This document shows positions 41,599 through 42,964 of a stretch of 64,000 bases of DNA, in pieces. The DNA is from Emcibacteraceae bacterium (GTDB lineage Bacteria; Pseudomonadota; Alphaproteobacteria; Sphingomonadales; Emcibacteraceae). The number at the start of each line of letters is the position of its first letter. Positions within the stretch are counted from its first letter, which is position 1. The position numbers were made by a program, and so were the translations under genes. The stretch covers positions 169 to 64,168 of the forward strand of contig JADGEY010000003.1 in NCBI GenBank assembly GCA_016744185.1, in the 5' to 3' direction. The notes under the pieces are model-generated. The model was not told the origin of the DNA. It made no database searches and saw only the letters and a program-made list of their open reading frames with translations.

Positions 41599-42021
41599 TT
41601 GGTGGAATTGATTTGCAAACATTGGAATTACTCTTTAAAGGAATGTCCGTTGATATATATTCTGCCCGAAGTTTTAAAAAAACTTGGAAAAGACTTTAAA
41701 GGAGACAAAAGGAGTTTAATTGCAATAAAGAAAAAATTAAAAATGTATTCAAAACACGGAGAGAAGGTTTTCGTAGAGGATACATTTAAACATGTTGGTA
41801 AGTTTTCAAGAGGCTTACCGTGTGGAACTGATGTGTCTGTTTACTCTATTAGACATAATCAAGTTCGGCTATATGGGTGCAAGGGCAAAAATGGATCAAT
41901 TTTTATTTGCACCGCCAGTGATAAAAAACAACAAAATAAAGCAAAGAAAATCATACTAGAAATGGCAGCAAAAAAATTCTCTGCCATAACTGATATTGAA
42001 TTAAAGGAGACTTCGAAATGA
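41599..42021 (+). CDS. RelE/HigB-superfamily (Gp49-like) toxin candidate
   Basis: C-terminal pattern VYSIRHNQVRLYGCKGKNGSIFICTASDKKQQNKAKKII resembles the Gp49/HigB consensus (ElR...yRvly...vvlL..f.KktQk). The stop overlaps the next ATG as ATGA. Start uncertain: TTG 41599, or ATG 41743 giving 92 aa. Confidence 0.55.
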   Translation: MVELICKHWNYSLKECPLIYILPEVLKKLGKDFKGDKRSLIAIKKKLKMYSKHGEKVFVEDTFKHVGKFSRGLPCGTDVSVYSIRHNQVRLYGCKGKNGSIFICTASDKKQQNKAKKIILEMAAKKFSAITDIELKETSK

Positions 42022-42500
42022 GCATAATGATTGAAATAACAAGTCATGAAGACAAAATGCTGGAAGCTGCCATTGAATTAGTTATTGAAATGCAATTTTC
42101 AGTACAGGCAGCCATGAAGAAAAACAATCTCAACCAAAAGAAATTAGCGAAATTGATGGGGTGCAGCCCTTCCAATATTTCTCAAATGTTAGCAGATGAT
42201 GCTAACCCACGGATTGAAACGATTGCTCGTGCGCTTTCCGCAATGGGGGAGGAGTTTAAATTTGTGACGGAGACGTTATATAGTGAGTTTTTTCAAGTTA
42301 ATTTGGAATGCAAATCTTTAAGTAGTCCTGAAATTGTTACAAATAAATTTTATGACGATAAAGAATTTGTACTGAGTGAAAGAAAAAATGAACGGATAGA
42401 AATTCAAGAACTTAAAATTAAAGATGGGGCTAATGATAATTATTGGTTTCAGTTGAAAAGCCCCAAATCTAATGTGTTTTTAGAATCATTATGTGCATAA
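42018..42500 (+). CDS. HTH (XRE/HigA-like) antitoxin candidate with long C-terminal extension
   Basis: HTH segment LNQKKLAKLMGCSPSNISQMLADDANPRIETIARALSAMG, followed by a tail of about 70 aa. Translationally coupled to the upstream ORF. Confidence 0.6.
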   Translation: MSIMIEITSHEDKMLEAAIELVIEMQFSVQAAMKKNNLNQKKLAKLMGCSPSNISQMLADDANPRIETIARALSAMGEEFKFVTETLYSEFFQVNLECKSLSSPEIVTNKFYDDKEFVLSERKNERIEIQELKIKDGANDNYWFQLKSPKSNVFLESLCA

Positions 42501-42511
42501 AGGTATAAAAC

Positions 42512-42964
42512 ATGACTGCCATCGATGAACAATATAACAGCTTCATTAAAGAAACTGAATTTAAAGGACTAAGGCTCATAAGTAGCGAGTTTTATAAGAA
42601 GAAAGAGTTCGATGATTTTGAAATTAATGACCTGAAAACATCATTTAGTTATGAAGTTAAGAGCATTACCTCAAATGAAAGAATTATTTTGATAGAGGTT
42701 TTGTGGTCATTGATAGTAAAAAAATCAAATATGATACTTGTAAAAATTCACATTGGCTATGAACTTGCCTATACAAACTCTAAGATGTTCAATGAGGATA
42801 TTGCTTCGAAATTTGTGGATATAGTTATAAAGCCTGTAAGTTTTCCATATTTAAGGCAATCAATCAATCAGATTTCTCAAGATGCAGACCTAAATATTCC
42901 GCAGTTGCCGATGCTAAAATTCTTGCCTACAAATAGCACGGCTAAAGAAGCGCCATCTGATTAG
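42512..42964 (+). CDS. SecB-like chaperone
   Basis: 150 aa. The C-terminal block VIKPVSFPYLRQSINQISQDADLNIPQLPMLKF parallels E. coli SecB [32 protein letters not shown], and the earlier beta-strand blocks also align. Confidence 0.6.
   Translation: MTAIDEQYNSFIKETEFKGLRLISSEFYKKKEFDDFEINDLKTSFSYEVKSITSNERIILIEVLWSLIVKKSNMILVKIHIGYELAYTNSKMFNEDIASKFVDIVIKPVSFPYLRQSINQISQDADLNIPQLPMLKFLPTNSTAKEAPSD

Follow-up and report, generated by a model that had tools for sequence, protein, structure and literature searches.

A probable toxin-antitoxin-chaperone operon with a sequence-divergent SecB-fold protein in an Emcibacteraceae genome

In toxin-antitoxin-chaperone (TAC) systems, a SecB-like chaperone accompanies a HigBA, MqsRA or HicAB pair (PMC5105189) or a CmdTA pair (PMC9519451; PMC11618068; 10.1101/2024.02.24.581848). 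The TACs serve in the response to stress and in phage defence by abortive infection, where the chaperone can be the phage sensor (PMC5105189; PMC9519451; PMC11618068; 10.1101/2024.02.24.581848). The chaperone addiction (ChAD) region of their antitoxins is a variable C-terminal extension whose aromatic residues dock into the chaperone, and the small-aliphatic dipeptide at its C-terminus, -VA in HigA1 of Mycobacterium tuberculosis and -AA in CmdA, is a ClpX degron (10.1101/2024.02.24.581848; PMC5105189). The toxin gene comes first in the gp49 and HigB families (PMC11980606, Table 1). Here we describe a three-gene cassette in a 64-kb stretch of an Emcibacteraceae genome (contig JADGEY010000003.1; the whole stretch is called the window below). 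We consider it very likely that this cassette is a chromosomal TAC operon of HigBAC-like layout, with a toxin (gene 1), a helix-turn-helix (HTH) antitoxin (gene 2) and a SecB-like chaperone (gene 3).

This reading is based on the predicted fold of gene 3, the conserved three-slot layout in unrelated contigs, the ChAD-like tails of the antitoxins and the empty insertion sites in related genomes. An earlier, first-pass annotation had already taken the locus for a TAC-type module. Its central reading is well supported, as are the three co-directional genes, the ATGA overlap of genes 1 and 2 (42018-42021), the XRE/HigA-like HTH protein with an extra tail and the strong UUCG-loop terminator (43038-43061); its placement of the cassette between a metal-uptake receptor and a tlpA-like gene is borne out by two relatives with an empty site. 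The window was compared with a sister metagenome-assembled genome (MAG; L001), an Emcibacter sp. (L005) and a Kordiimonadaceae MAG (L006). The principal features are as follows.

41599-42021, plus strand: gene 1, putative toxin, 140 aa as listed, with the family-conserved core from 41653
42018-42500, plus strand: gene 2, antitoxin, 160 aa, with an XRE-type HTH and a C-terminal tail
42105-42254, plus strand: HTH_3 DNA-binding domain, gene 2 aa 30-79 (Pfam HTH_3, E=1.3e-8)
42279-42497, plus strand: gene 2 C-terminal tail, aa 88-160, candidate ChAD ending in -LESLCA (from divergence and composition)
42429-42446, plus strand: ANDNYW motif, gene 2 aa 138-143, candidate chaperone-binding short linear motif
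42512-42964, plus strand: gene 3, SecB-like chaperone, 150 aa (from family profile, AlphaFold2 (AF2) and Foldseek)
43038-43068, plus strand: intrinsic terminator (hairpin 43038-43061) with a 10-bp stem, TTCG loop and T-run, 100% identical in L001
41242-43194, no strand: lineage-specific insertion of 1,953 bp between the receptor and the tlpA-like gene, empty in L005 and L006, present in L001
39142-41241, minus strand: TonB-dependent receptor (Plug and beta-barrel), one flank of the insertion
43195-43815, minus strand: tlpA-like gene encoding a TlpA-like thioredoxin-fold protein, the other flank

The chaperone gene and the cassette around it

Judged from its sequence, the cassette has every feature expected of a TAC. 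Its three genes are co-directional and are followed by a single terminator; genes 1 and 2 overlap as ATGA, and 11 nt separate genes 2 and 3. Gene 1 lies upstream of the HTH gene, which corresponds to the toxin-first order, and the HTH domain of gene 2 is followed by a variable, aromatic-containing C-terminal tail of the ChAD type. The third gene, which starts 11 nt past the gene 2 stop behind an AAGG Shine-Dalgarno sequence, is SecB-like by several independent comparisons. The direct matches of its product were only PADLOC PD-T4-9_C (E=6e-5) and phrog_10298 (E=4e-4), the former being CmdC, which is the chaperone in CmdTAC, a defence system (PMC9519451). HMMER, run exhaustively against 1.84 billion cluster representatives, recovered 55 distant relatives that are 129-201 aa long and reach at most 48% identity, and the family core reads YPYFR...S...LP.LP.L with one invariant arginine. 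On their own, 7 of 54 family members match Pfam SecB, and the two PADLOC PD-T4-9_C models are matched by 16 and 11 of the 54. The sole match of the family profile in the PDB was chain C of 5MTW, the SecB-like chaperone Rv1957 (E=5.9e-5).

The AF2 model of gene 3, built with 12 eligible homologs, reached a predicted local distance difference test (pLDDT) score of 84.9 and a predicted template modelling (pTM) score of 0.75, and consists of four long strands followed by a long helix. The top four Foldseek matches of this model were Rv1957 chains with bound ChAD peptide (5MTW; template modelling (TM) score 0.67-0.77, E=1.6e-7), followed by housekeeping SecB of Haemophilus influenzae and Escherichia coli (1FX3, 1OZB and 1QYN; TM 0.61-0.75); phage-encoded SecB-like proteins also match the fold. 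Because the family profile, the model and the Foldseek ranking point the same way, gene 3 is predicted to be a bona fide SecB-fold protein that is closest to the TAC chaperones and very remote in sequence. The block-by-block alignment with SecB proposed in the first-pass annotation was not recovered for this protein by the PF02556 model; the SecB-like nature of gene 3 emerges from its family profile and the AF2 model.

The same layout recurs elsewhere. In the contigs of 11 gene 3 relatives examined for it, a co-directional HTH gene, or its C-terminal end, always lies directly upstream of the chaperone gene. Every contig that is long enough (L001, L002, L003, L004, L088/L089, L090, L091 and L094, with L085 partial) encodes a protein of 97-153 aa upstream of the HTH gene, usually with a stop/start overlap. 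The slot-3 proteins are homologous across all cassettes, and the slot-2 proteins have in common an N-terminal HTH region of about 90 aa with 27-52% identity to the window; their tails differ. The cassette of L002 (1-2898) adjoins the CBASS genes SMODS, bacHORMA_2, Cap8 and AAA ATPase, plus DUF6602, and that of L004 (1-3037) adjoins a cNMP-binding TIR protein and E2-like proteins. In the closest cassette (L085, 96-571), whose gene 3 is 48% identical, an in-frame TAG at 381-383 interrupts the antitoxin right past the HTH domain, and its tail motif survives in a separate small open reading frame (ORF) at 470-571 (...RANDNGWLKNN...KPIAA), which reflects either antitoxin decay or errors in a short, low-coverage contig.

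Besides HTH_3, gene 2 gave weaker matches to antitoxin-type HTH families (Y4mF/HipB-type TIGR03070 and the HI1420-type antidote). The protein continues for about 75-80 aa past the HTH domain; polar, charged, Pro and Gly residues make up 56% of the whole protein, and eight aromatic residues fall within aa 88-160. Judging from its divergence and composition, the tail may be disordered. Across the cassettes the tails are not alignable except for one motif near the C-terminus, NDN followed by W, F or Y within 0-5 residues, which is found in 6 of 12 independent cassettes (ANDNYW in the window, ANDNGW in L085, GNDNF in L088, LNDN...F in L090, ANDNKKNTW in L093 and ANDNYEPTW in L094); the ANDNDW of the sister MAG was left out of this count. 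The tails of the L002-L004 clade have (E/D)W-A-x-A-E in its place. A C-terminal Ala terminates 10 of the 12 independent tails (-CA, -AA, -VA or -TA; P~5e-9 against an assumed 10% background). By its likeness to the aromatic ChAD motifs described earlier (10.1101/2024.02.24.581848), ANDNYW would be a chaperone-binding motif.

The cassette is a lineage-specific insertion, because its site is empty in both the Emcibacter sp. and the Kordiimonadaceae MAG and none of the 185,579 GTDB species-representative genomes contains a close gene 3 relative. The receptor and the tlpA-like gene lie on one strand in both cassette-free genomes, 62 bp apart in L005 and 26 bp apart in L006, whereas in the window 1,953 bp separate them and the cassette runs on the opposite strand. 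The sister MAG carries the same insertion at the identical site. The nearest argH genes in GTDB belong to an Emcibacter sp. (76%) and then to a Kordiimonadaceae MAG (72%), so the host is an alphaproteobacterium near Emcibacterales/Kordiimonadales. No convincing target-site duplication or terminal inverted repeats were found at the edges of the insertion. A word-indexed homolog search matched the sister-genome copies only, and neither gene 3 alone nor the pair of gene 3 and P0003 retrieved related loci from genome, viral or metagenome contigs.

Synonymous (dS) and nonsynonymous (dN) divergence between the window and L001 was distributed as follows.

Flanking tlpA, argH and lysA (baseline): dS 0.23-0.28, dN/dS 0.08-0.15
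Gene 1, last 75 codons: dS 0.06, dN/dS 0 (dN=0)
Gene 2, HTH part: dS 0.26, dN/dS 0.064, dN 0.017
Gene 2, tail: dS 0.57, dN/dS 0.45 (estimates 0.34-0.45), dN 0.26
Gene 3: dS 0.27, dN/dS 0.16

The shared site, a dS near the baseline and the low dN/dS indicate that the cassette is older than the split of the window and L001 lineages and has been kept by purifying selection. The tail of gene 2 evolves fastest, with a dN 15 times that of the HTH part and about ten times that of the housekeeping genes. Positive selection on this tail was considered and rejected, since its dN/dS of 0.34-0.45 is below 1 and its dS is elevated too. A block at 41794-42105, comprising the 3' part of gene 1 and the first ~29 codons of gene 2, has a dS of 0.06 against the baseline of 0.23-0.28, and the non-coding flanks at 41497-41611 and 42965-43080 are ~100% identical to L001. 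Recent gene conversion or constraint at the nucleotide level are possible causes of the low divergence in this block and the flanks.

The putative toxin gene

Gene 1 has homologs in slot 1 of the other cassettes. The best of them, from L088, is 36% identical over 114 aa (E=1e-16 in a small database), followed by L091 (E=2e-13), L090 (E=7e-8) and L094 (E=8e-6). Gene 1 also matches a 31-residue C-terminal fragment in L085 (SDKKQQNKA...), in which SDKKQQNKADRK... stands against SDKKQQNKAKKI... The slot-1 proteins form one family with weak bridges to the L002-L004 clade; profile and hhalign comparisons of the gene 1 family with the L002-L004 toxins were not significant. Type II toxins with the toxin-first order typically measure ~100-150 aa and overlap an XRE-HTH gene at the stop and start codons, as gene 1 does (PMC11980606). 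In two independent libraries, the only matches of the family were to RelE/ParE-superfamily toxins, both of them sub-threshold. The L091 protein, of the 6-member gene 1 family, matched Gp49 (PF05973) co-linearly over profile positions 36-80 of 90 with E=0.027 and 14.9 bits, which is below the 23.9 cut-off, and one family member matched RelE/StbE (TIGR02385) with E=0.086. Gene 1 is best described as belonging to a conserved protein family that lacks annotation and is always found in the toxin slot of this TAC lineage; that the family belongs to the RelE/ParE superfamily is plausible, and we regard this question as about evenly balanced. A tblastn search of 72,556 plasmids with gene 1 family members and gene 3 gave no real match, and a 48-bit degenerate DNA pattern of the gene 1 motifs matched the window and nothing in metagenome or viral contigs.

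Several results weigh against the interpretation of the cassette as a TAC operon. Taken alone, gene 3 did not match Pfam SecB (PF02556) even at E<=1, an outcome that the first-pass annotation had named as speaking against its proposal. The gene 1 protein had no match in Pfam, NCBIfam or PADLOC (E<=1), in PHROGs or among PDB sequences, and family profiles built from 6 and 10 sequences found no solved toxin or relative in the PDB. A comparison of the gene 1 family with HigB1 of M. tuberculosis was specified beforehand, with the query sequence checked against PDB 7AWK; 768 of 2000 shuffled sequences scored at least as high against the family HMM as the real HigB1, and hhalign gave probabilities of 0.06% and 0.55%. 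The AF2 model of gene 1, made from two near-identical sequences, is unusable at a pLDDT of 51 and its Foldseek matches are noise, although its predicted order of elements (alpha-alpha-beta4-alpha) would suit a RelE-like fold. In the window the family-type start no longer lies in the frame of gene 1; the toxin of this genome may therefore be inactive or have an altered N-terminus.

The first-pass annotation had assigned gene 1 to the Gp49/HigB-RelE-like toxins, starting from a resemblance between KKQQNKA and KNQQKTPK. This assignment could not be upheld, since the Gp49 and HigB models that it had suggested gave no match to the gene 1 protein of the window at E<=1 and the HigB1 test was negative. 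The resemblance remains a lead and not a result, and gene 1 was not filed as HigB/Gp49 because it failed both the family threshold and the HigB1 comparison. The coordinates given for the ORF were correct; what had been overlooked is that its 5' end is frameshifted relative to the family. The features involved are listed here.

41652-41661, plus strand: (AT)n tract, 2 bp shorter than in L001, which shifts the frame upstream of 41652
TTG 41599, GTG 41602 and TTG 41650, plus strand: candidate starts of gene 1 in the window, the last with AAGGA 7 nt upstream

The L001-type start of gene 1 appears to be ancestral, because the N-terminus of L001 (MQTLELLFKG...) aligns with that of L088 (MSTLVEIVKG...) as MxTLxxxxKG. 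The TTG used in L001 corresponds to TTG 41613 of the window, from which translation would stop after ~28 codons. The ORF of the window is open in another frame from TTG 41599 or GTG 41602, with an unrelated 17-residue N-terminus, and a start at TTG 41599 is doubtful. One faulty assembly cannot account for the indel, because NCBI, ENA and the independently re-assembled Logan data all contain the variant. The L091 homolog naturally lacks the N-terminal ~40 residues. This shorter homolog, together with the absence of nonsynonymous change in the last 75 codons, argues against a long-standing inactivation of gene 1.

Alternative explanations and proposed mechanism

The frameshift raises the question whether the cassette of this genome is a remnant in decay, with a toxin that the 2-bp deletion inactivated or crippled and with an antitoxin and a chaperone that linger as a harmless leftover or an "anti-addiction" pair. 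The truncated family-type start, the confirmation of the indel across independent assemblies and the in-frame stop in the L085 antitoxin, a probable case of decay in this cassette family, all fit such a history. We nevertheless consider it unlikely, since the ORF is open from 41599 in the other frame and has an internal TTG at 41650 behind a good AAGGA Shine-Dalgarno sequence, the conserved C-terminal part has a dN of 0 while the N-terminal part has a dN/dS of 0.29 against L001, and the L091 homolog suggests that the N-terminus may be dispensable. It is less probable still that gene 1 is no toxin at all and that the cassette is a chaperone-assisted regulatory module of a small protein, an HTH regulator and a dedicated chaperone that causes no growth arrest. 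Such a module would explain why no sequence or structure test run here gave gene 1 a toxin family; yet the only sub-threshold matches of its family (Gp49, E=0.027; RelE_StbE, E=0.086) both lie in the RelE/ParE superfamily, relatives of the cassette are located in defence islands (L002 and L004), the overlap with the XRE-HTH gene and the protein size are those of toxin-first type II toxins (PMC11980606), and the characterised SecB-like three-gene operons are all TACs (PMC5105189, PMC9519451).

Gene 3 might also be the housekeeping SecB of the genome that happens to lie beside an ordinary two-gene toxin-antitoxin pair. It has the SecB fold, and no other SecB-like ORF was found in the window with the E. 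coli SecB sequence as the query. This explanation is very improbable: L005 and L006 lack the gene at the syntenic site, no GTDB species representative contains a close relative, the Pfam SecB model does not recognise its product at all, the gene takes the third position in a cassette that is conserved across unrelated contigs, and both structure and profile match a TAC chaperone best. A housekeeping identity was therefore rejected.

Under the preferred TAC reading, the cassette could work as follows. Gene 1 would encode a small toxin that arrests growth, most likely an RNase of the RelE/ParE superfamily that targets translation; the sequence comparisons point to this weakly. Gene 2 would bind and neutralise the toxin and probably repress the operon through its XRE HTH domain. 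The fast-evolving tail of ~75 residues may make gene 2 unstable by aggregation, by proteolysis via the degron-like -CA end, or both, and the gene 3 chaperone would hold the tail, probably via aromatics such as W143 of the NDN-W motif. When a phage structural protein or unfolded clients titrate the chaperone, the antitoxin would be lost and the toxin freed, and the freed toxin would stop growth or abort the infection.

We also propose, far more tentatively and as something we hold to be rather unlikely, that the slot-1 family, present in at least nine cassettes, is a toxin type outside HigB/Gp49, MqsR, HicA and CmdT whose fold or activity may be new, and that together with a SecB-like clade missed by standard models and the NDN-W/F...Ala-COOH motif it defines a fifth TAC type. 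If the toxin family is new, then a fifth TAC type would have been overlooked by the current toxin-antitoxin and defence annotators. Systems of this general type are already well known, and a cassette like this one is an expected accessory element that introduces no new principle. Our analysis nevertheless suggests that whole TAC lineages escape current annotation, since Pfam, NCBIfam and PADLOC make no toxin call and the chaperone receives only a weak PADLOC call. The TACs are an emerging anti-phage and stress class in which the chaperone doubles as a sensor. With about a dozen cassettes that have a conserved tail motif and a C-terminal Ala, chaperone addiction and degron use become testable by mutagenesis, and the two natural N-terminal variants of gene 1, in the window and in L001, provide a ready test of the importance of the N-terminus.

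Flanking features and comparison with known systems

The region upstream of gene 1 and the region past the main terminator contain the following elements.

41516-41598, plus strand: upstream control region with repeats, palindromes and candidate -35/-10 elements, nearly 100% identical in L001
41523-41532 and 41544-41553: TTGTAATTTT direct repeats, 21 bp apart, kept in L001
41545-41559: inverted repeat TGTAA-N5-TTACA, just upstream of gene 1, kept in L001
41568-41587: inverted repeat ATATCT-N8-AGATAT, just upstream of gene 1, kept in L001
43080-43093: second, weaker terminator-like hairpin (CTCCTCACAGGGAG and TTTCTTATGG), 19 bp past the main terminator

The TTGTAATTTT repeats and the two palindromes are candidate operators for the HTH antitoxin. 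The "good promoter" of the first-pass annotation did not stand out from the background, as the scan returned 10 promoter-like sites against 9.6 expected in AT-rich DNA, which is not above chance, and the best candidate (TTGTAA-17-TAATAT) scores 8/12. Terminator-like sites, on the other hand, exceeded the expectation of 0.7 derived from shuffled sequence, with 4 in the region. The main terminator hairpin lies between A-rich and T-rich runs and could also end the convergent tlpA transcript.

On the receptor side of the insertion, the palindrome ATGTTATATCATAAC is located at 41293-41307, upstream of the TonB-dependent receptor gene; we take it to resemble a Zur box. The receptor has a His/Glu-rich stretch, HSHGDEHEEHEGEEEHEEGEE, which is typical of ZnuD-like zinc receptors and fits the earlier label of a metal-uptake receptor. 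Three further genes lie on the far side of the receptor.

37711-38217, minus strand: peptide deformylase
38443-38907, plus strand: 154-aa protein without a Pfam match
38910-39140, plus strand: 76-aa HTH_3 protein

The gene set at 37711-39140 is also present in L001, and in L005 a Usp-like gene directly adjoins the receptor. This region may be a second lineage-specific insertion, and the 154-aa gene with the HTH_3 gene could be another small two-gene module.

Among known proteins, housekeeping SecB (PF02556; 1QYN, 1FX3, 1OZB) resembles gene 3 in its fold (TM 0.61-0.75). Gene 3 also shares the FPY-x-R ... P-x-L motif region with E. coli SecB. Unlike housekeeping SecB, gene 3 does not match Pfam SecB, is not conserved in related genomes and is embedded in a toxin-antitoxin operon.

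The anti-phage CmdTAC system of E. coli (PD-T4-9) is likewise a three-gene operon with a variable antitoxin, and gene 3 and about half of its family match PD-T4-9_C. The -AA C-terminus is common in the present family, and the Ala-Ala end of CmdA is recognised by ClpX (10.1101/2024.02.24.581848). The two systems differ in that the present cassette has an antitoxin of the XRE HTH type and gene 1 encodes ~125-140 aa with no PADLOC match. The cassette was not classified as CmdTAC, because it contains no ADP-ribosyltransferase toxin, gene 1 having no PADLOC match, and the chaperone component alone matches.

The HigB1-HigA1-SecB(TA) system of M. tuberculosis (Rv1955-Rv1956-Rv1957; 5MTW) has the same gene order and an antitoxin with a C-terminal extension, and its chaperone Rv1957 is the best match of both the gene 3 family profile and the predicted gene 3 fold. 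The aromatic tail and the small-aliphatic C-terminal dipeptide are further similarities (-CA here, -VA in HigA1; 10.1101/2024.02.24.581848). In contrast, the chaperones are only ~9% identical in the structural alignment, gene 1 has no detectable sequence similarity to HigB1, the NDN-W tail motif is specific to this clade, and the host here is an alphaproteobacterium.

The phage-lambda-sensing HigBAC of E. coli NT1F31 combines the toxin-first order, an HTH antitoxin and a SecB-like chaperone in the same way (10.1101/2024.02.24.581848). It has a long ChAD with several aromatic motifs, and its chaperone has been proposed to be the phage sensor (10.1101/2024.02.24.581848). The candidate ChAD here is ~75 aa long compared with 96 aa, and the two systems are likened by description and not by sequence. 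By this analogy, NT1F31 HigBAC is a plausible mechanistic template for the cassette described here.

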